A DNA stretch of 51,176 bases. It comes from Candidatus Nomurabacteria bacterium RIFCSPLOWO2_12_FULL_40_42 (GTDB lineage: Bacteria; Patescibacteriota; Minisyncoccia; Phycocordibacterales; UBA9973). The notes below the pieces were generated by a model, which saw only the letters and a list, made by a program, of their open reading frames with translations, was not told the DNA's origin and ran no database searches. The translations under genes and the position numbers were made by a program. Below, piece by piece: positions 18,696-48,852 of this stretch (its first letter is position 1; each line of letters starts with the position of its first letter). The stretch is taken from assembly GCA_001786195.1 (NCBI GenBank), contig MFVS01000024.1:1-51176 (forward strand), read 5' to 3'.

Positions 18696-19004
18696 ATGGA
18701 AATAAAAAACTTTACAACTGATATAGATAAATTCTTAGATAATTTAGAAGAAACTACTAGAAGTAAAGTTTCAAAAGTTGTGCATATGTTAATGATGGCT
18801 GGGAATGATATTGCGATGCCTTATAGTAAAAGTTTAGGTGAAGGACTTTTTGAATTACGCATATCAGGCAAAATTCCTATTAGGATAATATATTGTTTTT
18901 ATGAAAATTACGCTATTTTGCTTCATGCCCTTATAAAAAAGAGTGACAAGATACCAAAGCGGGAATTGGATTTAGCTAAAAGAAGATATGACACAATTCT
19001 TTAA
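18696..19004 (+). CDS. RelE/HigB (Gp49-like) toxin
   Basis: MPYSKSLGEGLFELR, RIIY, LLHA..KKS.K.P..EL..A. Confidence 0.85.
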   Translation: MEIKNFTTDIDKFLDNLEETTRSKVSKVVHMLMMAGNDIAMPYSKSLGEGLFELRISGKIPIRIIYCFYENYAILLHALIKKSDKIPKRELDLAKRRYDTIL

Positions 19005-19048
19005 GTTATCCACTTGCATAATATAACGCATATGTTATACTCTTAAGT

Positions 19049-19351
19049 ATGAAAAAAGAACAAAAAAAATCAATAAAAGATATGACCAATTTTTCTAATC
19101 TTCATAATAAATGGATGAAGGATCTAAAGTTTAAAAAGGCTTATGATGACCTGGAGCCAGAGTTTGCTATTGTTCGCGCAATGATAAAAATGCGGCTAAA
19201 AAATAAAATGTCTCAGAAAGATTTAGCCAAGAAGCTCGGCACCAAGCAGCCAGCGATAGCTCGGTTCGAATCCGGGGCGTATAACCCAACTATTTCTTTC
19301 TTGAAAAAGCTTTCAACCGCGCTAGGGGGAAAATTAGAAATTAAGATTTAG
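19049..19351 (+). CDS. XRE-family HTH antitoxin (HigA-like)
   Basis: MSQKDLAKKLGTKQPAIARFESG; downstream of the toxin. Confidence 0.87.
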   Translation: MKKEQKKSIKDMTNFSNLHNKWMKDLKFKKAYDDLEPEFAIVRAMIKMRLKNKMSQKDLAKKLGTKQPAIARFESGAYNPTISFLKKLSTALGGKLEIKI

Positions 19352-38142: not shown

Positions 38143-38480
38143 TTGGTCCTGTATTAGATAGCTACTCCGACTTCGGTCGGGGAGGAAAGTCCGAACACGC
38201 AGTTTCGACCTTGGGTCGGAATTAAACGTAGCGGGTAACGCCCGCCATCCGCAAGGATTGAGGTGAGAACAGTGACGAATCCCTCACCAATTGTTAAATT
38301 GGTGAGGGGGTGAAACGGCAAAATCCTTACGCGCGTGCAAGATCGTGTTCCCTCACCAGTTTAACTTAAACTGGTGAGGGAGAGAATCGCTTGACCCTGA
38401 GAGTAATTGAAGGGCTAGATAAATTGCTATCGTCCGACTTTGGTCGGACTACAAAATTCGGCTTATAGATACAAGACCAA
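38143..38480 (+). ncRNA. rnpB: RNase P RNA
   Basis: GAGGAAAGTCC and ACAAAATTCGGCTTA conserved regions, P1 ttggtcctgtat/atacaagaccaa, TATAAT at 38133-38138 and downstream terminator. Confidence 0.93.
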
Positions 38481-38486
38481 GAACAT

Positions 38487-38721: not shown

Positions 38722-40803
38722 ATGGCGGACTTACCTGAAATACCCATAAATAAAGAAATTACATATCTTGGCATCACCACTTATCGAGACAAGAATCAGC
38801 TCTTTGGCATAAAGCGCAAAGATCGGCGTCAGCATGTTTATATTCTCGGAAAATCCGGTACTGGTAAATCCGTCCTGATGTTCAACATGATTATCCAGAA
38901 CATCAAAAACGGCGACGGAGTCTGTATGGTGGATCCGCATGGCGAAAATGTCGAAGCTGTCCTTTCGGCTATTCCGCCGGAGCGTATCAAGGATGTGGTT
39001 TATTTCAATCCGGCCGATGCCGATCACCACATCGGTTTTAATGTTTTGGAATTGATCGATCCGCAATACAAGCACTTGGTGGCCTCGGGACTCATGGGAA
39101 TTTTTACGAAAATTTGGGCCAACGCCTGGAGTGCCCGAATGGAATACATTTTGAATAATGCGATTCTGGCGCTCCTCGATACACCGGGCACGACACTCCT
39201 CGGTATTCCACGTATGCTGGTGGATAAAGATTATCGCCAAAAAATAATTTCCAATTTGAAAGATCCGGTCATCAAAGCTTTCTGGGTGCACGAATACGAA
39301 GCTTGGCAGGATAAATTTCGAAATGAAGCCATCGCGCCGATCCAAAACAAAGTCGGGCAGTTTCTTTCGACTTCGATCATCCGCAATGTCGTCGGCCAAT
39401 CCAAGAGCACGATCAATATCTTTGACATGATGAACGAAAAGAAAATTTTCTTAGTGAATGTTTCCAAGGGGCGTATCGGCGAGGATAATTCCGGCCTTCT
39501 CGGTGGAATGATTATCACCAAAATTCAGCTGGCGGCCATGGAGCGGGTGCGTATTCCCGAAGAATCCCGCCAGGATTTTTACCTGTATGTCGATGAATTC
39601 CAAAATTTCGTAACCGATGCCTTTGCCGGCATTTTGTCGGAAGCTAGAAAATATCGATTGAACTTGACGGTGGCGCACCAGTATACCGCCCAGCTGGTGG
39701 TGGACAAAAGCTCTGCGGTGCGCGACGCGGTTTTCGGCAACGTCGGCACGATGATTGTTTTTCGAGTCGGCGCCGATGATGCGGAATTTTTGGAGTCCGA
39801 ATTTGATCCGGAATTTACGCCGCAGGACTTGGTGAATTTGCCGAACTATAAAATTTATTTGAAACTCATGATTGATGGCGTGACCTCTCGCCCTTTTTCT
39901 TCGAAAACTCTGCCGCCCTTGGTTCACTCCGGCGATAAAAAAATTGAAGAGGCTGTGATTAAATCATCCCGGGCGCTGTATTGCCGGCCAAAGGAAGTGG
40001 TGGAAAGAGAAATTAATGATTGGAGCGGAATGTCTTTGGGCAATGAGGGGGATACCGGGAGCGGAATCTTGGAAAAATTTCCGGTCATCTGTTCAAATTG
40101 TAAAAAAGAAACGACGGTACCCTTCAAGCCGGAACCCGGGCGCCCCGTTTACTGCAAGGACTGCATCGCGAAAATAAAGTCCGGAGAAATAAAAGTTACC
40201 AAGGGATCGGAAAATCAGATCAAGCACGACGAAGTCACTTTCTTCAAACCACTCTCGGATCTTGGAATCGAATTCGAACGGAAATATAAAGGCCATGTGG
40301 AAGAAGAGAACCGGCATCCGGAGCGAGCGTATACTCATGTTAAGGACATTCCAGTTGCACCAAAGCGACCGGGTATATTGGGAGCTATTAAAAAAGTCTT
40401 TACTTCATCGACACCGCAAGCTAAAGTAAATATTCCTCCAAAACAACCACTAAAGCCTGCCCGTCCGACAGGCGGGTCTGCCCGCCCAAGCGGGGCGAAT
40501 ACTGTTTTGCGGGAAGTTTTAAATAAAATAAAAAAGCCGCAACTTTCGCCCAAGGTAGATTCAGTTAATGTTCCGCCGTCGGTTTCCTTGGATACACTCA
40601 AAAATAAAATAAAAGAATCCGCGCCCGCAAGCCATTCCAAAGACCGCGCCGCAAGTCCGGAAGAGATGAATAAATTGAAGGATTTAATCTCCAAAAAAGT
40701 AGAAAATAAAAAAGAAGAAACTACTCCACCTCCGACACTTTCCCCTATACTCAAAAATCCAAAAGAAGTTCCGGAAGATGTGTTAAGAAAAATATTAGAA
40801 TGA
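38722..40803 (+). CDS. TrwB/TraD/VirD4-like P-loop ATPase with C-terminal CxxC-x17-CxxC Zn ribbon and low-complexity tail
   Basis: GKSGTGKS, DPHG, YVDEFQN, EARKY, AHQY..QL; CSNC-x17-CKDC. Confidence 0.88.
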   Translation: MADLPEIPINKEITYLGITTYRDKNQLFGIKRKDRRQHVYILGKSGTGKSVLMFNMIIQNIKNGDGVCMVDPHGENVEAVLSAIPPERIKDVVYFNPADADHHIGFNVLELIDPQYKHLVASGLMGIFTKIWANAWSARMEYILNNAILALLDTPGTTLLGIPRMLVDKDYRQKIISNLKDPVIKAFWVHEYEAWQDKFRNEAIAPIQNKVGQFLSTSIIRNVVGQSKSTINIFDMMNEKKIFLVNVSKGRIGEDNSGLLGGMIITKIQLAAMERVRIPEESRQDFYLYVDEFQNFVTDAFAGILSEARKYRLNLTVAHQYTAQLVVDKSSAVRDAVFGNVGTMIVFRVGADDAEFLESEFDPEFTPQDLVNLPNYKIYLKLMIDGVTSRPFSSKTLPPLVHSGDKKIEEAVIKSSRALYCRPKEVVEREINDWSGMSLGNEGDTGSGILEKFPVICSNCKKETTVPFKPEPGRPVYCKDCIAKIKSGEIKVTKGSENQIKHDEVTFFKPLSDLGIEFERKYKGHVEEENRHPERAYTHVKDIPVAPKRPGILGAIKKVFTSSTPQAKVNIPPKQPLKPARPTGGSARPSGANTVLREVLNKIKKPQLSPKVDSVNVPPSVSLDTLKNKIKESAPASHSKDRAASPEEMNKLKDLISKKVENKKEETTPPPTLSPILKNPKEVPEDVLRKILE

Positions 40804-42470
40804 ATCAAGAAACTAAACAGTGTAAAAAATGTAATCAAGATTTTATTTTAGATTCGGACGATCTGGGTTTTTACGAGAAGATGAAAGTGCCACCACCGAA
40901 AGTCTGTCCTGACTGTCGTTTCAAAATGCGGGCAATGTTCAGAAACGAGATCGTTCTTTATAACCGCATTTGCGAAATGTGCGAAAAATCCACGATTTCA
41001 ATGTATGGGTCGAAATCCCCCTATACTATTTATTGCAAAGATTGCTGGCTCTCTGAAAAGTGGGATCCATTTTCTTATGGAAAAGATTATGATCCCCAAA
41101 AGCCATTTTTTGAACAGATGAAAGAGTTGATGTCGCGCGTTCCAAAAGCGGGAATTTTTGCATCCGAAGATGTTGGCCCAAATATAAATAGCGAGTATAC
41201 CAATTTTGCAGGGGGAAATAAAAATTGCTATTTCATTTTTAATTCAGGACCTAATAATGAAGAATGCGCTTATTCTCGCGGATTAATTTTATGTCGTGAA
41301 GTGCTAGACTCGTATTTTTCAAACAAGACGGAAAAGATCTATGAAGCGATAAATGTAAATTTAAGTTCTGGAATTGTATGGGCTCAGAATTCAGATAATT
41401 GTATTGATTCCGCTTTTCTTTTAAATTGCTCCAATTGCCATAATTGTTTTGGCTGTGTGAATTTACGTCATAAATCGTACCATTTTTTCAACCAACCATT
41501 ATTAAGAGACGAATATCAAAAAAGGATATCGGAAATTATTGGAAGTTATAAAAATATGGAGAAATTTCGGGTCCAGTTTGAAGAATTTTCAATGCGTTTT
41601 CCAAGAAAAGAAAATAACAATTTGAAAAATGAGAATGTTTCCGGAGATTATATTTTTGAATCAAAAAACTGTCACAATTCATATGAAATATCTTTTTGCG
41701 AGGATTCCAAATTTCTTTTTTCAAACAAACGTACAAAGAATTGTTACGATTTAATCGGTCATGGCCGAAGAAGCGAGTTATTATTAGAATGTGTTGCTGT
41801 GGGGACTTCAAGCGATGTCATTGGTTCATGGTGGAGTACTGGATCTCATGATGTTTATTATTCCTTTGCTTTGCGTTCTTGTGAGTATTGCTTCGGGTGC
41901 GATAGCGTCAGAAATGGTAAATATGTGATTTTAAACAAGCGATATAACAAAGAAGAATATGAAAGGATTCGCTTACAAATTATCGCTGAGTTGAAAGAAA
42001 AAAATTTATATGGTCTTTATTTTCCATCCGAGCTAGCGCCTTTTGCCTATAACGAAACAATCGCCCAAGACAATTTTCCGCTCTCCAAAGAAGAAGCGAT
42101 AACGCAAGGTTTTCGCTGGGAAGATGATATCCAAAAAACGGAAGGGAAGGAGACGATGGAGCCCGAAAAAATTCCAGATCATATCAAAGATGTGCTGGAT
42201 TCTATCACCAGTGAAATTTTAAGATGTGTAGATTGCAATCGAAATTATAAAATCATTGCGCAAGAACTTTTGTTTTATAGAAAAATGAATCTTCCGATAC
42301 CCCGGAAATGTTTTTACTGCCGGCACCAAGACCGCATTACCCGCCGCGGGCCGTATAAATTCTGGAATCGCAATTGCGCTAAGTGCGAAAAAGAAATCAC
42401 CACGAATTATTCTCCCAACCGGCCGGAAATAGTATACTGTGAAAAGTGTTACCAGCAGGAAGTTTACTGA
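40800..42470 (+). CDS. Cys-rich hypothetical protein, paralogue 1 (terminal Zn-ribbon pairs, repetitive Cys/Asn core)
   Basis: CxxC..FYEK..VPPP..CPDCR N-terminus, CFGC repeats, PEIVYCEKCYQQEVY C-terminus; ATGA overlap with the ATPase. Confidence 0.85.
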   Translation: MNQETKQCKKCNQDFILDSDDLGFYEKMKVPPPKVCPDCRFKMRAMFRNEIVLYNRICEMCEKSTISMYGSKSPYTIYCKDCWLSEKWDPFSYGKDYDPQKPFFEQMKELMSRVPKAGIFASEDVGPNINSEYTNFAGGNKNCYFIFNSGPNNEECAYSRGLILCREVLDSYFSNKTEKIYEAINVNLSSGIVWAQNSDNCIDSAFLLNCSNCHNCFGCVNLRHKSYHFFNQPLLRDEYQKRISEIIGSYKNMEKFRVQFEEFSMRFPRKENNNLKNENVSGDYIFESKNCHNSYEISFCEDSKFLFSNKRTKNCYDLIGHGRRSELLLECVAVGTSSDVIGSWWSTGSHDVYYSFALRSCEYCFGCDSVRNGKYVILNKRYNKEEYERIRLQIIAELKEKNLYGLYFPSELAPFAYNETIAQDNFPLSKEEAITQGFRWEDDIQKTEGKETMEPEKIPDHIKDVLDSITSEILRCVDCNRNYKIIAQELLFYRKMNLPIPRKCFYCRHQDRITRRGPYKFWNRNCAKCEKEITTNYSPNRPEIVYCEKCYQQEVY

Positions 42471-42590
42471 AGATCCACGCCAGATTAGTATCAGCGTACT
42501 ATGAGTATATGAAAAATGTTGACGAAAACCGAATATGCCAGAACCCCGAACGAAAGCAAAGCTTCGTACGGGGCAGGCTGCAAAAAAATT

Positions 42591-44356
42591 ATGAAATATA
42601 AATCACAAAATGTAGTGTGTCAGAATTGTAAGGTTAGCTTCACAATCGATCCGGAGGATTTTAATTTTTACGAGAAAATCAAAGTCCCGCCGCCGACCTT
42701 TTGTCCGCTTTGCCGAGCGCAGAGGCGGATGGCTTTCAGGAATGAGCGGAAACTTTTTAAAGTCAAAGATCATTTTACCGGAGAAGATATTTTTTCTACC
42801 TATCCAGCAGAAAGCGGAAGGAAAATAATTACTCGCGAAGAATGGTTTGGGGACAATTGGGATCTAATGGAATATGGAGCTTCGTATGATTTTTCCAGAA
42901 ATTTTTTTGAACAGCTGATGGAACTTCAGAAAAAAGTGCCCATGTATAATTTCAATGTTATAAGAATGGTCAACAGCCCTTATTCTTTCAATGCCACGGC
43001 GCTCAAAAATTGCTATCTCTTATGCAACTCCAATAGTTCAGAAGATTGTATGTATGGCAATGCGGTGGATTTTTCCAAAGATTGTGTGGATAATTCTCAT
43101 ATAAATCATTCTGAGCGGTGTTATGAATCTTTTTGGTTGGAGAATTGTTACCAATGCTATTTTACTACTAGGTCTATGGAATCCAGAAATCTTTATTTCT
43201 GCAGAGGTTGTGTGGGATGTAGTGATTGTTTTGGTTGTACCAATCTACGTAGTACTTCTTATTGCATTTTTAACCAAAATTATTCCAAAGAAGAATATTA
43301 CGAAAAAATAAAAAGTATGCAACTCGATACTTTTTCCGGAAACAAAAAAGCCAGGGAAAAAGCTCGAGCATTTTGGGATACGCAACCTGTCAAATATCAT
43401 CAAGGACTTAAAAATTTAAATTCAACCGGTTCTTATGTCACAAACTGCAAAAATGTTAATGACAGCTACCTGGTTCGAGAAAGTGAAAATATGCGTTATT
43501 GTCAATACCTGCAAGTGCCTAAAAATAAGGATAATTATGATGTCACAAATTGGGGAGAATATATTGAACTGTGCTATGAAACAATAGAGTGCGGGGAAAA
43601 TTCTTATAATAATAAATTTTCCAGAAATTGCTGGCCGGCTTGTAAGCACAATGAATATTGTATGGATAATTTTAGCTCCTCGGATTGTTTCGGTTGCGTG
43701 GGATTAAAGAAAAAACAATATTGTATTTTGAATAAACAATACACTAAGGAAGAATACGAAAAAATGGTAGAAAAAATTAAAAAAAATATGGATGAAATGC
43801 CTTATGTTGATGCACAAGGTTTGGTCTACAAATATGGCGAGTTTTTTCCTATAGAACTCTCACCGTTCGGATACAACAATTCGTTAGCGGTTCAACATTT
43901 CCCAATGACTCAAGAAGAGGCGCAAGATAAAAAGTATCCTTGGATAGAAGTGGGAAGGGGAGAATACAACATCACTAAAAAAGCGCGCGAACTTCCCGAT
44001 TCAATCAATGAAGTTTCAGATCAAATATTAAAAGAAGTGATTGAATGCGAAAATTGCAAAAATGCTTATCGTATATTAGAAAATGAATTAATTTTTTACG
44101 CAAAGAAAAACTGCCGCTTCCACGAATGTGCAATGAATGCAGACATGAGCGCAGAATAGAGGATAGGCTGAAATTGCATTTATATGAAAGGTCTTGTATG
44201 TGTGCTGGAACTATTGACTCAACCAATACATACAAAAATACTGTTTCCCATATCCACAAAGATTCTCCTTGTGCGGAAAAATTCAAAACTGGATATGCGC
44301 CAGGTCAACCAGAAATTGTCTACTGTGAAAAGTGTTATCAGCAGGAGGTTTACTAG
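42591..44356 (+). pseudogene. Cys-rich paralogue 2, frameshifted at T6 run 44092-44097 (or sequencing error)
   Basis: One extra T joins ORF 42591-44159 to 44126-44356, giving ELIFLRKEKLPLPRMCNECR...YCEKCYQQEVY like the paralogues. Confidence 0.8.
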
Positions 44357-44381
44357 CCTTTGGCTAGTGTATTAAAATACG

Positions 44382-44423
44382 AAGATAGCATAATGGCAGC
44401 GGTCGCTGCCATTATGCTATCTT
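44382..44423. terminator. Perfect 20-bp-arm hairpin between convergent genes
   Basis: aagatagcataatggcagcg-gt-cgctgccattatgctatctt; related hairpin at 12344-12375. Confidence 0.65.
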
Positions 44424-44449
44424 GAGTTTTTTTTGTTTGCCGTAAATTC

Positions 44450-45160
44450 TTAGATTCCATGAACTGCGCGATAAGTCGCCACGATGGCTGCGGTAACGCC
44501 CGTGAGAATGAGTGATCCAAGGGAAGCGACAGAGAAGCCGCAATCTTTTGCCAATTCTATTTCTCGCTCGGTGAAGCCGCCTTCCGGTCCGATAAAAATG
44601 CTCACATTTTTTGCATTTTTACCTGCCCCGTTCTTTTCGGGGTCGGGTATGTATTCTTTCGCTCCCGGGTGAAAAATAATTTTTTCGCCTTCTGCTTTTT
44701 TAAGCGTGTCTTCAAAATTTAAAATAGGGGAGATGGTCGGCGTGAAATTTTGTCCGCATTGCTCGCTCGCTTCCAAAATTATTTTCTCCAAGCGGGGAAG
44801 ATTCAAGCCGGTTTTGATCGTTCGCTCGGTGATGATCGGCGTGATAGAGGAGACTCCACACTCGACCGCTTTTTGCGCCGCTAATTCAAAATTTTCTTTT
44901 TTGAGAATTGCTAAATACAAATGCACTTTCTTAGCAATTTCTTTTTCCGTATGTACTTCCAAAACCTGGCCAGTGATTTTTTCTTGGTAAATTTTATCTA
45001 GCCGAACTTTGGCGCTTTGACCCCTCCCATCTCCAAGAATTACCAAATCGTCAACTTTAAGCTCCAAAACGTCCTTTATTTGCTTGATAATTTTGTTATC
45101 TTTGATTTCTATCTCCTGTTTCTGTAAGTCGAAATTTCCAATAAACCTGTGTAATTTCAT
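44450..45160 (-). CDS. rsmE: 16S rRNA m3U1498 methyltransferase (SPOUT)
   Basis: QKAVECGV..I.P..TER, EASEQC, IGPEGGF; the LRxETA motif reads LTGVTA. Confidence 0.9.
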   Translation of the reverse strand: MKLHRFIGNFDLQKQEIEIKDNKIIKQIKDVLELKVDDLVILGDGRGQSAKVRLDKIYQEKITGQVLEVHTEKEIAKKVHLYLAILKKENFELAAQKAVECGVSSITPIITERTIKTGLNLPRLEKIILEASEQCGQNFTPTISPILNFEDTLKKAEGEKIIFHPGAKEYIPDPEKNGAGKNAKNVSIFIGPEGGFTEREIELAKDCGFSVASLGSLILTGVTAAIVATYRAVHGI

Positions 45161-45267
45161 AATTTATATGATACACTTTTAGAGCAAAGATTCAAAATAT
45201 ATGGAAACTAGAAACTGCCATCCCGAACGAAAGCAAAGCTTCGTACGGGGCAGGCTGCAAAAAAATT

Positions 45268-46944
45268 ATGAAATATAAATCACAAAATGTAGTGTGTCAG
45301 AATTGTAAGGTTAGCTTCATAATCGATCCGGAGGATTTTAATTTTTACGAGAAAATCAAAGTCCCGCCGCCGACCTTTTGCCCGGAATGCCGTTATATTC
45401 GTCGGCTTTTGGATAGAAACGAATACAATCTATATAAAAGAAAATGTGATGCAACTGGAAAGGATATTATTTCTATCTATCGATCGGATGCGCCGTTTCC
45501 GGTATATAATCAAGAATATTGGAAATCCGATAAATTTGATGGAATGGAATACGGACGCAATTTTGACTTTGATCGTTCATTTTTTGAGCAATACGAAAAA
45601 CTTCGCCGAGTAGTGCCGCATTTGGCGATCGTAAATTCTAACAGCGTTAATAGCGAATACACAAATCAATCACAAGACAATAAAGATTGTTATATGCTTG
45701 TCACCAGCGAATCTTGTGAAAAGTGCATGTATGGAAGCTGGTGTCAGCGAGGATGTTATTTTTTAAGTGATTGTTACATGGCGGAGAAAAGTGAGTTTTG
45801 TTATGAATGTATAAATATCAAAAAATGTTCAAAATGTATGTGGGCATATGATTGTTCAGACTGCGTAAATGTTTATTTTTCGAGAGATTGTCGCGGATGC
45901 ACTGACTGTTTTGGATGCGTCGGGCTAAGAAGTAAACAATACTATTATTTTAATGAAAATCTAGGAAAAGAAGAGTATGAGAAAAAAGTTGGCAAAATAA
46001 TTTGGAATAGAAGTTTTATAAAAGAAACAAAAGAAAAATTTTTCAAATTTCGAGCAAGTTTTCCGGTCAAATATTACCACGGCTCGCAAATTCAAAATTC
46101 TTTCGGGGATTATATTGAAAATTGCGAACGAACGCGCCACGCATTTAATTGCAAAGATAATAAAGATACAGCGTACATGCAGGATGCGTGGCAGCAAATA
46201 GAAGACTGTAGAGATTGCACTGAAATAATTACTGCTCAATTAGCTTATGAAATTCAAGGTGTTGAAATTCCACATAGAACAATAGTGGCTCGGAGTTGTT
46301 TTAACACTATCACTGACTCGTATTATTGCGACATGTGTTTTACTACACAGGATTGTTTTGGTTGTTTTGGTCTAAAGCAAAAACAGTACTGTATTTTTAA
46401 CAAACAATACCCCAAAGAAGAATATTTTATTTTGAAAGAAAAAATTATTGAGCACATGCGGCAAACAAAAGAATGGGGTGAATATTTTCCTGCTCGTGTG
46501 TCGCCATTTGCTTATAACGAATCAATGGCGCAGGATTATTTTCCTTTGACGAAAGAGCAGGCCATAAAGGCTAGATACACTTGGTATGATCGACCACCCA
46601 GGGATTATAAAATTACCGAAGGGATTTACAAATGTGCCACTCAAGATTCATCGGAGAAAGAGAAATATCCTTTATGCACTACTGCCTTTCGAACTACCGA
46701 CATGGAGTTATCTTTGTACAAAATTCTGAAATTGCCGATTCCAGAAAAATGCTTTCCCTGCCGTAGGCAAGATCGTTTTAAGTTGCGAAATCCTCGCAAA
46801 CTTTGGCACCGATCTTGTATGTGCGAAAAAGGAAATCATTTACACGGGGGAGAGAAATGTGAAGTAGAATTTGAAACCAGCTATGCTCCAGACCGTCCGG
46901 AAATTGTCTATTGCGAGAAGTGTTACCAGCAGGAGGTGTATTAA
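45268..46944 (+). CDS. Cys-rich hypothetical protein, paralogue 3
   Basis: Same terminal motifs and CFGC repeats as 40800-42470. Confidence 0.87.
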   Translation: MKYKSQNVVCQNCKVSFIIDPEDFNFYEKIKVPPPTFCPECRYIRRLLDRNEYNLYKRKCDATGKDIISIYRSDAPFPVYNQEYWKSDKFDGMEYGRNFDFDRSFFEQYEKLRRVVPHLAIVNSNSVNSEYTNQSQDNKDCYMLVTSESCEKCMYGSWCQRGCYFLSDCYMAEKSEFCYECINIKKCSKCMWAYDCSDCVNVYFSRDCRGCTDCFGCVGLRSKQYYYFNENLGKEEYEKKVGKIIWNRSFIKETKEKFFKFRASFPVKYYHGSQIQNSFGDYIENCERTRHAFNCKDNKDTAYMQDAWQQIEDCRDCTEIITAQLAYEIQGVEIPHRTIVARSCFNTITDSYYCDMCFTTQDCFGCFGLKQKQYCIFNKQYPKEEYFILKEKIIEHMRQTKEWGEYFPARVSPFAYNESMAQDYFPLTKEQAIKARYTWYDRPPRDYKITEGIYKCATQDSSEKEKYPLCTTAFRTTDMELSLYKILKLPIPEKCFPCRRQDRFKLRNPRKLWHRSCMCEKGNHLHGGEKCEVEFETSYAPDRPEIVYCEKCYQQEVY

Positions 46945-47025
46945 TTCTCCTCTTCCTGAGTACCCTTTAGGGGGAGGTGGATAAAATTTTCCACCCCGGC
47001 TAAAGCCACCCCTCAAGAGGGGAAT
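46944..47025. repeat. Intergenic composite palindromic element
   Basis: attctcctctt...aagaggggaat ends, internal ggtgga/tccacc and ggc-taaa-gcc hairpins. Confidence 0.55.
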
Positions 47026-47041
47026 ATGATACAATATATAT

Positions 47042-48586
47042 ATGCCCAAGCCGAATCGAGTGCAAATAATCAAATACGGACCGCCGCCGCCAGAGCTGCC
47101 TGTTTTCGGCAAGGTCAAGCCCGAGGAGGTTTCTTTTATCGGACGGACGAATTACGTGGCCTCACTCGAAGAAAAAAAATTTATTTTCGGAATCAAGCGA
47201 GTGGACCGCCGCCGTCATCTTTATATCATCGGAAAGTCTGGTGTCGGCAAGACCAAACTTCTTGAGCTCATGCTCCGGCAGGATATTACTTACGATCACG
47301 GGCTTTGCTTGATCGATCCGCACGGGGATGTGATCGAAGCGATGCTGGATTATATTCCCAAAGAACGCATGGAGGATGTTTGCATTATCGATCCGACCGA
47401 TCTTGATTTTCCGGCTTCCTTCAATCCGCTGGCCAATGTCGATCCCTTATTTAAATTTCAATTAACCCAAGGGCTGATCGAAGTCTTTCAAAAGCAATTC
47501 GGAGCCAATTGGACACCTCGGCTCGAGCACGTCTTTCGCTTTACTTGTCTGGCGCTCCTTGATTATCCGCACGCGACCATGCGGGGGATGATCTCGATGC
47601 TGACGGACAGAAATTACCGGCAGAAAGTGGTGGAGTATATTACCGACGACATGGTCAAAAGATTCTTCGCAATCGAATTCGCGGACTGGTCCGAAAAGTT
47701 TGACACTGACGCGATTATTCCCTTGGTCAACAAGCTCGGACAATTTCTCTCCGATCCGCTCCTTCGAAATATTTTCGGTCAGAAGCAAAACAAGATAGAC
47801 ATCAGTAAGTTAATGAACGAGGAAAAAATTATTTTAATTAATCTCTCCAAGGGCCGCCTCGGCGAAGAAAATTCCTCTTTCTTGGGATCTATATTTTTGA
47901 CTAAGATCAAGCAAGCCGGCATGGAGCGCGCCGCAATTCCCGAACGTGACCGCAAAGATTTTTATATTTATGTCGACGAGTTCCAAAACGTCGTGACTCA
48001 AACTTTTGAAAATATTTTGTCCGAGGCTCGCAAATACGGGCTCAACTTGACCATGGCGCACCAATACGTAGGCCAGATTATTACCAAAGTCCATCAAGCC
48101 GTGCTCGGCAACTGCGGAAGCATTATTACTTTTCGTATTGGCGGTGAAGACGCAGTGAAAATGAAGCCAGAATTCGCGCCGCTTTTTGATGTCAAAGATA
48201 TGATCAATCTAGCGGTGACGGAATTTTATGTCAAAATGACTATTGACGGCGAATCTTACGATCCGTTTTCGGCCGAAACCCTTCGGGTCCTGCCGCCGAC
48301 CCATCCTTCCTATCGGAAAGAAATCATCGCGGCTTCGCGAGATAAATATTCCATACCAAAAGGCGATGCTGCGAGGTTGATTGCCGAAGAAGAAGCCACC
48401 ATCATCCGCAGTGCCGAAGAAAAAGCCATCATTGAAGGCCGGGCCAAAAGAAAAGAAAAAGAAAAAAAAGGAAATAAAGAAGAAGAGGAAGGAATCGAGG
48501 AATCTGCCACCGCTGAAAGCTCTGGCGAGATGAAAGAAGAAAAACCAAAAGCCAAAGCTTCCCAAGAAGCCGAGCCTATGATATAG
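47042..48586 (+). CDS. Second TrwB/TraD/VirD4-like P-loop ATPase
   Basis: GKSGVGKT, DPHG, YVDEFQN, EARKY, AHQY; colinear with 38722-40803 but lacks the Zn ribbon. Confidence 0.88.
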   Translation: MPKPNRVQIIKYGPPPPELPVFGKVKPEEVSFIGRTNYVASLEEKKFIFGIKRVDRRRHLYIIGKSGVGKTKLLELMLRQDITYDHGLCLIDPHGDVIEAMLDYIPKERMEDVCIIDPTDLDFPASFNPLANVDPLFKFQLTQGLIEVFQKQFGANWTPRLEHVFRFTCLALLDYPHATMRGMISMLTDRNYRQKVVEYITDDMVKRFFAIEFADWSEKFDTDAIIPLVNKLGQFLSDPLLRNIFGQKQNKIDISKLMNEEKIILINLSKGRLGEENSSFLGSIFLTKIKQAGMERAAIPERDRKDFYIYVDEFQNVVTQTFENILSEARKYGLNLTMAHQYVGQIITKVHQAVLGNCGSIITFRIGGEDAVKMKPEFAPLFDVKDMINLAVTEFYVKMTIDGESYDPFSAETLRVLPPTHPSYRKEIIAASRDKYSIPKGDAARLIAEEEATIIRSAEEKAIIEGRAKRKEKEKKGNKEEEEGIEESATAESSGEMKEEKPKAKASQEAEPMI

Positions 48587-48618
48587 TCTAATTTATATTA
48601 GACGTTTAAGAAATTTTT

Positions 48619-48852
48619 ATGAAAAATGTAACTATTTATTCTACTCCAACCTGTCATTTTTGTCACATGGCCAAAGAGTTTTTTAAGGAAAAAAATGTCG
48701 CTTATACCGAGCATGATGTGGCGAGCGATATGGTCAAGCGCAAAGAAATGGTGGAAAGAAGCGGTCAGCTTGGCGTGCCGGTTATTATCATCGGCGACGA
48801 GCTGATTGTCGGTTTTAACCAATCCAAAATCGCGCAACTTTTGGGTATCTAA
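48619..48852 (+). CDS. Glutaredoxin-like protein (NrdH/YruB type)
   Basis: YSTPTCHFC, GVPV, IVGF. Confidence 0.92.
   Translation: MKNVTIYSTPTCHFCHMAKEFFKEKNVAYTEHDVASDMVKRKEMVERSGQLGVPVIIIGDELIVGFNQSKIAQLLGI

Follow-up and report, generated by a model that had tools for sequence, protein, structure and literature searches.

Soluble coupling-protein-like ATPases and a cysteine-rich zinc-ribbon protein family: a candidate two-part module in Patescibacteria

What does an ATPase folded like a type IV coupling protein (T4CP) do at a locus where no relaxase or VirB gene lies beside it? This question is raised by contig MFVS01000024.1 of Candidatus Nomurabacteria bacterium RIFCSPLOWO2_12_FULL_40_42, a member of the Patescibacteria (candidate phyla radiation, CPR) whose genome (767,545 bases in 32 contigs, 95% complete) is referred to here as the host genome. 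The whole contig, of 51,176 nucleotides (nt), is the window, or contig C24, and in it two T4CP-like ATPases, ATPase 1 (A1) and ATPase 2 (A2), bracket three genes for cysteine-rich (Cys-rich) proteins; a third ATPase paralogue (A3) lies on contig C18. Genomes and loci used for comparison carry the prefixes G and L, respectively. The genes at issue are as follows.

38722–40803, + strand: A1, soluble T4CP-like P-loop ATPase of 693 amino acids (aa), assigned by Pfam and NCBIfam matches and an AlphaFold2 (AF2) model
40800–42470, + strand: Cys-rich 1, 556 aa, with the predicted architecture [ZnA-ZnB]–beta-solenoid core–[ZnA-ZnB], from its translation and an AF2 model
42591–44356, + strand: Cys-rich 2, frameshifted, its open frame having been listed as 42516–44159
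45268–46944, + strand: Cys-rich 3, 558 aa with 40 Cys, immediately 5' of A2 on the same strand
47042–48586, + strand: A2, soluble T4CP-like ATPase of a short form, 514 aa, assigned by Pfam matches and a clade with Shimodaira–Hasegawa-like approximate likelihood ratio test (SH-aLRT) support of 100

A first-pass annotation, made from the letters of the window, had placed these genes at the positions where they are found and had proposed that the ATPases and the Cys-rich proteins belong to one system. Its anatomy was confirmed with the corrections given below, and its central proposal has held up, as the two gene types co-occur across the phylum and are adjacent in at least nine families. The core is best explained as a two-part module, consisting of a soluble T4CP-fold ATPase of the A2 clade and at least one member of a Cys-rich family of ~550–600 aa, and for the genus the best explanation adds A1 as a further component, its gene directly abutting that of Cys-rich 1. 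As judged by comparative genomics the link is real, and it is likely that it reflects a functional connection of some kind between the ATPase and the family.

Association of the ATPases with the Cys-rich family

Across the phylum, the association was followed in 401 genomes ranked by their match to A2. Some ATPase match is present in 398 of them (a tally that includes G194), and full-length Cys-rich genes are present in 19, belonging to about a dozen families. Among the 19 genomes that score highest for A2 (E ≤ 2e-143), 18 have a Cys-rich match, namely 17 of the 19 genomes with full-length genes together with G182, which carries partial copies beside the ATPase; G323 alone lacks the family. 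This threshold was set after the ranking had been seen, and it coincides with a shift from frames of 485–770 aa to frames of more than 1,000 aa and lower identity. Full-length copies occur in only two of the other 382 genomes (G187 and G353), with a partial copy in G433, and 13 further genomes have short matches to the Zn module only. Within this sample, neither the A2-clade nor the Cys-rich gene type was found beyond the genus in its order or class.

Adjacency was scored in the 20 genomes outside the genus that have full-length or partial Cys-rich matches, and in 13 of these (G283, G340, G122, G071, G326, G205, G238, G067, G398, G113, G159, G391 and G182) an A2-clade ATPase has a Cys-rich gene, or the remnant of one, no more than ~5 kb away. 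In the usual layout the ATPase is immediately preceded by one or more Cys-rich genes on its own strand, as A2 is by Cys-rich 3 in the window, and the adjacency recurs in at least nine families. No other conserved neighbour was found, the surroundings of A2-clade ATPases consisting of unrelated housekeeping genes that vary by lineage. The local layout is repeated in G398, where A1 with a Zn finger, a short A2 and an array of 25%-identical Cys-rich genes are found together.

The same picture emerges from a tree of the ATPases (66 rows, quick IQ-TREE search, LG+G4), in which three old clades are resolved. The A2 proteins of the genus cluster with ~750-aa ATPases of other classes (SH-aLRT 100, 22 rows), which have an N-terminal extension of ~300 aa, and 18 of the 22 rows in this clade lie within ~5 kb of a Cys-rich gene. 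A1 and A2 fall into separate old clades, which rules out a recent duplication as their origin, and the first-pass description of the two as a simple paralogous pair therefore does not stand.

Within the genus, sampled by 25 genomes including that of the host, the A1, A2 and A3 types are present in all 25 and the Cys-rich family in 24, with 1 to 26 matches each. Among the 150 copies listed, to which 56 weaker and uncounted matches could be added, 41 lie within 5 kb of A1 or A2, where ~4.6 would be expected from genome size, and A1 or A2 is found in the flanks of 26 of 65 loci from genomes of other species. The recurring order is A1, Cys-rich gene(s), in places an rsmE gene on the minus strand, and A2; four low-copy genomes (G002, G016, G017 and G019) keep a copy at or near the ATPase locus. 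The start of Cys-rich 1 overlaps the stop of A1 by 4 nt (ATGA), as noted at first pass, and a gap of at most 4 nt or an overlap separates A1 from the Cys-rich 1 orthologue in 7 of 15 related loci. These orthologues share 56–64% identity within the genus and form an orthogroup with a support of 100.

Such counts bear directly on the possibility that there is no functional link at all, in which case the ATPase locus would be a permissive or ancestral site for a proliferating family and the association a product of chance or linkage. Most copies do lie elsewhere, genomes with the ATPases and without the family exist, three of the nine Cys-rich loci of the host genome are damaged, and a 171-nt stretch that is 97% identical in two copies shows ongoing recombination among copies, all of which speak in its favour. 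This possibility is nevertheless very unlikely, given the near-exclusive co-occurrence in 401 genomes, the adjacency in at least nine families in which these two gene types are the sole common neighbours, the retention of the upstream same-strand layout, and the abutting or overlapping orthologues of A1 and Cys-rich 1. The first-pass annotation had itself named independence of the two gene types in other genomes as the observation that would count against it; what was found is that many copies are scattered, yet the family co-occurs with the A2 clade.

Properties of the ATPases and the Cys-rich proteins

Both A1 and A2 exceed the Pfam cut-offs for TrwB_AAD_bind, T4SS-DNA_transf, TraG-D_C and DUF87 (in A1, 37, 28.6 and 24.3 bits for the first three, with cut-offs of 20.5, 20.1 and 22), and their Walker A motifs lie at residues 43 and 64, respectively. 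The curated NCBIfam cut-offs for TraD/VirD4 proteins were not reached, the best score being 47.9 bits for TIGR03743 (cut-off 366), with 49.8 for CD1115 (cut-off 250). A simple hydropathy scan rather than a dedicated predictor (Kyte-Doolittle mean ≥ 1.6 over 19 residues) found no hydrophobic 19-residue window, and thus no membrane anchor, in A1, A2, A3 or the long-form A2 homologues. The claim that the window encodes two coupling-protein-like ATPases lacking a transmembrane anchor is thereby borne out.

The ATPase domain of A1 spans about residues 11–440 and is followed by a CxxC-x17-CxxC Zn finger at residues 452–485 (bases 40075–40173), which matches zf_Tbcl_2 (PF23477) at 50.1 bits (cut-off 27) and TIGR04272 at 52.7 bits (cut-off 36), and by a basic, disordered, K/P-rich tail (residues 490–693, isoelectric point (pI) 9.8); the tail of A2 is acidic. 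The AF2 model of A1 has a predicted local distance difference test (pLDDT) score of 76.5, being confident at residues 1–437 and the finger and disordered past ~500. Its best Foldseek matches are all TrwB deltaN70 chains (E 3.9e-14 to 5.6e-13, TMt 0.61–0.65, ~415 columns), ahead of HerA (2.6e-12), Cag-beta, SIR2-HerA, DotL and DndH-C. TrwB of plasmid R388 (PDB 1e9s, 1e9r, 1gl6) matches the model best across its entire soluble part, covering both the nucleotide-binding and the all-alpha domains, and the sequence profile of A1 resembles TrwB only around the P-loop (E 5.5e-7). The A2 sequence gave no match among PDB chains. What sets A1 and A2 apart from TrwB, VirD4, TraD and TraG is the lack of an N-terminal anchor and of relaxase or mating-pair genes nearby.

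The A1 clade is near-universal, and A1 of the genus carries one extra Zn module of the Cys-rich type. Outside this genus, a finger on A1 is found in a single distant genome, G398, and the first-pass idea that a shared Zn module tags the ATPase and its partners generally does not hold. In other families of the same order (L075–L086), a single A1-clade ATPase without the finger is found in a conserved order of Mur ligase, small membrane protein, DUF4015 (putative glycosyl hydrolase), ATPase, LTD/PKD protein and GT4 glycosyltransferases, a setting that is cell-envelope-like. A3 (923 aa, L007:7632-10403) matches phrog_5156, of unknown function, over nearly its full length at 271 bits, and relatives of A3 that are ~22% identical occur in SPO1-like Bacillus phages (SPO1 gp27.4) and in Geobacillus phages.

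The matches to HerA raise the possibility of a cytoplasmic conflict or defence module, in which a HerA/FtsK-superfamily motor would act with a Zn-ribbon/solenoid repertoire that binds or senses foreign nucleic acid or protein, with no part for secretion. Multicopy paralogue families with a patchy phyletic distribution are common in conflict systems, which counts in favour of this proposal. The ATPase domains match PADLOC mad8 at 49 and 43 bits, a model that has no curated cut-off, and show weak similarity to several HerA models; the structural matches of A1 include SIR2-HerA and DndH-C; and the terminal Zn modules are basic (pI 8.1 and 9.2). HerA-effector pairs such as SIR2-HerA and the MAD7-MAD8 pair of MADS, described as an ATPase-nuclease module in the available text of PMC13662399, share with the window the P-loop superfamily and the pairing of an ATPase with a partner. 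However, the Cys-rich partner has no nuclease or other effector domain, no PADLOC match and no invariant His that could be seen, TrwB is the closer fold, and there is no defence-island context, the copies being scattered singly among housekeeping genes. A full MADS or HerA gene set was not found around the ATPase, where only the ATPase domain matches mad8 and neither a methyltransferase nor any other MADS gene is present among the housekeeping neighbours. On balance, a conflict module is unlikely.

The Cys-rich proteins themselves contain 31–40 Cys each, and the three window paralogues are 33–39% identical overall, with conserved ends. The three CxxC-x17-CxxC spacings noted at first pass, one in A1 and two in Cys-rich 1, and the CxxC..FY.K..P..CxxCR ribbons preceding those of Cys-rich 1 are seen in the translations as described. 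Cys-rich 1 itself falls under the cut-off of the domain models (16.8 and 20.2 bits), and other paralogues in the genome reach the cut-off, with 30.4 bits on C6 and 29.3 bits on C8; all nine zf_Tbcl_2 matches in the host genome are confined to A1 and Cys-rich genes. In the AF2 model of Cys-rich 1 (pLDDT 83, predicted template modelling score 0.85), a Zn-ribbon pair with helices (residues 1–115) is followed by a beta-solenoid (116–235) and further helices, then by a second and less confident solenoid stretch (270–380), a helical part, and a second Zn-ribbon pair (470–556). This model is consistent with the solenoid core that had been proposed for these proteins. No Foldseek match to it reached E ≤ 0.001, the weak rows all being left-handed beta-helix proteins, and the best VIA-align Z scores for the core, 5.1 (1m8n) and 4.9 (1ezg), are under the informative level of that tool and amount to a generic solenoid likeness.

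The family to which these proteins belong is large: of 8,000 candidates scored, 4,117 proteins reach E ≤ 1e-5, all of them unnamed, and there are 2,286 clusters (50% identity) at E ≤ 1e-30, of which the best 150 are all 530–602 aa long; it has been seen solely in Patescibacteria. Two longer forms, of 1,727 and 1,114 aa, are apparently tandem copies read together and were set aside as a clue to function. The window proteins have no Pfam, PADLOC or phage match and no meaningful PHROG, and ESM Atlas returned unnamed clusters only; a phage origin was rejected, as no tblastn match was present in 50,697 phage records. Stand-alone proteins of ~90–160 aa that consist of the paired Zn-ribbon module alone occur in G190, G077, G241, G256, G070, G296, G377, G208 and G069, and none was found near ATPases in the five such genomes checked. 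Many further contigs from public sequencing runs align only to 43702–43769 and 44314–44381, two short conserved stretches of the Cys-rich gene, which indicates that the same metagenomes contain numerous additional members of the family. The six intact copies of the host genome represent six separate old orthogroups that are common to other genomes of the genus, and rapid species-specific diversification of paralogues was ruled out on this basis.

Neighbouring genes and local anatomy

The module is set among further features, listed below, some of which had been considered part of it. The last line gives copies outside the window.

38146–38481, + strand: RNase P RNA, bacterial class A (122 bits, gathering score 100)
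42544–42580, + strand: conserved 37-nt leader hairpin, upstream of Cys-rich 2
44450–45160, − strand: rsmE, 16S rRNA U1498 methyltransferase (Methyltrans_RNA 135 bits, TIGR00046 134.5 bits)
45221–45257, + strand: leader hairpin, second copy, 5' of Cys-rich 3
48619–48852, + strand: CxxC glutaredoxin, 77 aa (Pfam PF00462 74.1 bits, cut-off 22.9)
C2:5900-5936 and C17:10825-10861, host genome: further copies of the hairpin

The first-pass annotation had counted three paralogues of ~550–590 aa between the ATPases. This stands for Cys-rich 1 and 3; Cys-rich 2 is frameshifted, and rsmE on the minus strand interrupts the block. The break in Cys-rich 2 lies in an A5 run that is one base short (44106–44110), and its C-terminal Zn module and the shared end ...PEIVYCEKCYQQEVY sit in another frame, which continues to 44356. 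The end common to all three proteins is thus conserved, with the qualification that in Cys-rich 2 the end PEIVYCEKCYQQEVY is out of frame with the rest. Contigs of four public runs carry the same sequence over Cys-rich 2, with no differences and no gaps, although these runs may include the source sample and contigs mask rare variants. Because the four agree, the frameshift is probably real and an assembly error is unlikely. Translation of Cys-rich 2 probably starts at 42591 rather than 42516.

A 171-nt direct repeat (42545–42715 and 45222–45392, 97% identical) comprises, in both Cys-rich 2 and Cys-rich 3, a 46-nt portion of the leader and ~125 bases at the start of the coding sequence; beyond it identity collapses, and it therefore points to a recent gene conversion between the two genes. 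At the other end, the shared C-terminal motif differs between paralogues at synonymous sites, which indicates that it is held by selection on the protein. The 37-nt hairpin in the leader (fold energy −20 kcal/mol, z −3.24) lies ~10 nt before the start codon of four of the nine Cys-rich genes and nowhere else in the host genome. Related copies are found 5' of Cys-rich genes in L009 and L015, and a variant 5' of dnaJ in L008 is changed on both sides of the stem. The hairpin may be a leader or regulatory element.

Could all seven genes from A1 to the glutaredoxin form one machine, with the glutaredoxin keeping the Cys-rich partners reduced and both ATPases bracketing interchangeable partners? The local gene order fits this proposal, and the glutaredoxin gene, which is found directly after A2 as the first-pass annotation had it, is the sole one in the host genome by tblastn. 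Its status as a component of the module has not survived comparison, as a search of 113 related loci, including 21 with A2 of the genus, gave no homologue at E ≤ 0.01; the protein scores 88.1 bits for the YruB family, just under the cut-off of 88.55, and has no PADLOC match. In relatives it is dnaJ that follows A2, A1 and A2 are not a duplicated pair, and rsmE divides the block on the opposite strand. A seven-gene machine is therefore highly improbable and, as far as gene order can tell, already contradicted by the neighbourhood comparison. The glutaredoxin looks incidental, a neighbour in the host genome only and outside the module. Likewise, rsmE is an interposed housekeeping gene outside the module; it lies beside A2 in L011, L012, L014, L019, L020 and G018, and the divergent rsmE/A2 pair is conserved within the genus only.

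In the relatives of the genus where dnaJ follows A2, an Hsp70 gene precedes A1, and in L087–L090 (G018, G021, G022 and G002) A1 and A2 together lie between Hsp70 (dnaK) and dnaJ. In the host genome dnaK is on C26 and dnaJ on C10, and the Hsp70/DnaJ block has therefore been rearranged there. This setting in relatives could point to an intracellular assembly or remodelling pair, in which the ATPase would load, unfold or recycle Cys-rich solenoids with a structural or metal-handling role. The solubility of the ATPases, the 31–40 Cys and predicted solenoid of each partner, and the age and conservation of the paralogous orthogroups would all suit such a pair. To our knowledge no ATPase with a T4CP fold has been described as a chaperone, which counts against it, and the Hsp70/DnaJ context is limited to the genus and absent at the window locus. 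Moreover, up to 26–32 copies in genomes of ~0.8–0.9 Mb would be costly for a housekeeping scaffold, and two genomes of the genus manage without the family, so that a remodelling pair is decidedly unlikely. A further point in its favour is that two small CxxC-x17-CxxC (TIGR04272/PF23477) proteins of Methanosarcina mazei bind zinc, as determined by inductively coupled plasma mass spectrometry (available text of PMC12704099). They share the Zn module with the family but are small, stand-alone archaeal proteins of unknown function, as described there, whereas in Cys-rich 1 the module is one of four Zn ribbons in 556 aa and is found on A1 as well.

The remainder of the window is ordinary chromosome, including dnaE, gap, transketolase, several tRNA synthetases, mreBC, tgt and speA, and the RNase P RNA gene occupies most of the 600-nt gap 5' of A1. 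Family profile matches revealed no relaxase or VirB family among the 40 upstream open reading frames (ORFs) and the local genes, in agreement with the first-pass statement that such genes are missing from the window. Close to the contig start, a gene for a large serine recombinase (341–2059, + strand; domains Resolvase, Recombinase and Zn_ribbon_recom) overlaps a tRNA-Ile gene (1879–1952, − strand), and this overlap may mark the edge of an integrated element. At 18696–19351 (+ strand) a Gp49-like (DUF891) gene adjoins an HTH_3 gene in an order typical of a toxin-antitoxin pair.

A possible connection with type IV secretion

If the ATPase and the Cys-rich family are functionally linked, what might the ATPase do with its partners? 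The reading preferred here, somewhat short of an even chance and put forward tentatively, is that a dedicated soluble T4CP has the Cys-rich proteins as its clients and that these may be candidate substrates of a type IV secretion system (T4SS). In such a mechanism the ATPase, presumed to be hexameric by analogy with TrwB, would recognise the conserved terminal Zn-ribbon modules of the Cys-rich proteins, would use ATP to engage or unfold them, and would pass them on for export to the Patescibacteria T4SS, whose genes lie elsewhere in the genome. A T4SS cluster of the monoderm type is indeed present in the host genome, on contig C8 at ~18–32 kb (L073), with a VirB4-like ATPase (P-loop_TraG, 89 bits), a PrgI-like and a VirB2/T4SS-pilin-like protein, an ORF6N protein and unassigned ORFs; FtsK and RecA are encoded on the same contig at ~101–105 kb. 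A VirB4 homologue was found in all 20 module-bearing genomes searched. A complex prediction for A1 residues 11–450 and Cys-rich 1, run from separate alignments, gave a score of 0.00 (mark 0.32) and weighs neither way.

Published work on the phylum gives this reading its setting. According to the main text of Quinonero-Coronel et al. (2025; PMC12102498), 5,713 VirD4-like T4CP homologues are present in 2,918 Patescibacteria genomes and only 148 of them lie near virB4, relaxases are rare, T4CP genes often adjoin the gene of their substrate, and exaptation of the orphan homologues is raised as a possibility. These orphans are the same kind of protein as A1 and A2, in the same phylum, and are likewise multicopy, mostly distant from virB4 and without relaxases. 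In Southlakia, the T4SS is reported to be essential for epibiotic growth (PMC12102498; PMC12857230), a point stressed in the second of these papers, a recent review.

Several observations weigh against export through a T4SS. The T4CP homologue of Southlakia, unlike the T4SS genes, is not essential (PMC12102498, main text). In all 20 genomes searched and in the host genome virB4 lies away from the module, which is present in only ~5% of the sampled genomes of a phylum in which T4SSs are widespread. Canonical T4CPs are membrane proteins, and A1, A2 and A3 have no membrane anchor. Folded domains stabilised by Zn would be awkward substrates for a T4SS, and old conserved orthogroups fit an effector arms race less well. 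The physical association is also incomplete: ~73% of the listed copies in the genus lie away from A1 and A2, and six of the nine loci of the host genome, three of the nine being damaged, are on contigs without an ATPase. Two complete genomes of the genus keep A1 and A2 with no Cys-rich gene (G323) or with the family reduced to a 33-aa remnant (G018). Outside the genus, no A2-clade adjacency was seen in 7 of the 20 genomes scored, some of whose assemblies are fragmented; these include G187, G353, G060, G088 and G064, and the partial copy of G433 has an ATPase of a different type 2.2 kb away.

Two known systems offer analogies for the proposed T4SS clients. In Xanthomonas and Stenotrophomonas, T4SS effectors reportedly share a conserved C-terminal domain that interacts with VirD4, so that varied proteins carry one terminal domain read by the coupling protein, much as is envisaged for the Zn-ribbon ends. 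Those effectors have toxin domains and immunity genes, whereas the Cys-rich family has a solenoid core with no recognisable enzyme, no immunity-like neighbour, and conservation at both ends. In the ESX/type VII systems, the locus of the FtsK-like ATPase EccC is accompanied by the dispersed PE/PPE multigene families, and there too an ATPase locus anchors a multigene family with conserved ends whose copies are spread through the genome. The proteins, the branch of ATPase and the secretion apparatus are unrelated, and this likeness is one of analogy only.

The module looks undescribed in the literature searched, and in it an ATPase of a known kind is joined by a new family of partner proteins. 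The available text of PMC12102498 does not divide the T4CP homologues into clades and draws no connection with Cys-rich proteins, and its main text does not use the word zinc and mentions cysteine only for a peptidase domain. The family is also unmentioned in the available text of PMC12857230, and the supplementary tables of PMC12102498 on gene families near virB4 and T4CPs could bear on novelty. A literature search on the domain names returned only the Methanosarcina work and one unrelated preprint, and a search for Cys-rich or zinc-finger paralogues of Patescibacteria returned nothing relevant.

Thousands of orphan coupling-protein homologues are present in the phylum (PMC12102498, main text; PMC12857230, available text). 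The locus described here links one orphan ATPase clade to one very large uncharacterised family, and thereby provides client candidates that can be tested. A broader proposal, doubtful at present, is that the whole family is the substrate repertoire of the Patescibacteria T4SS and that the anchor-less ATPase clade selects it through the terminal Zn modules; if this were true, genomes with up to ~30 copies would encode a large arsenal, injected or displayed at the surface, for use in interactions with hosts. Even if secretion played no part, the ATPase would be the first functional partner for a family that fills up to ~5% of some tiny genomes, as estimated from 26 matches of ~1.7 kb in a genome of ~0.8 Mb.

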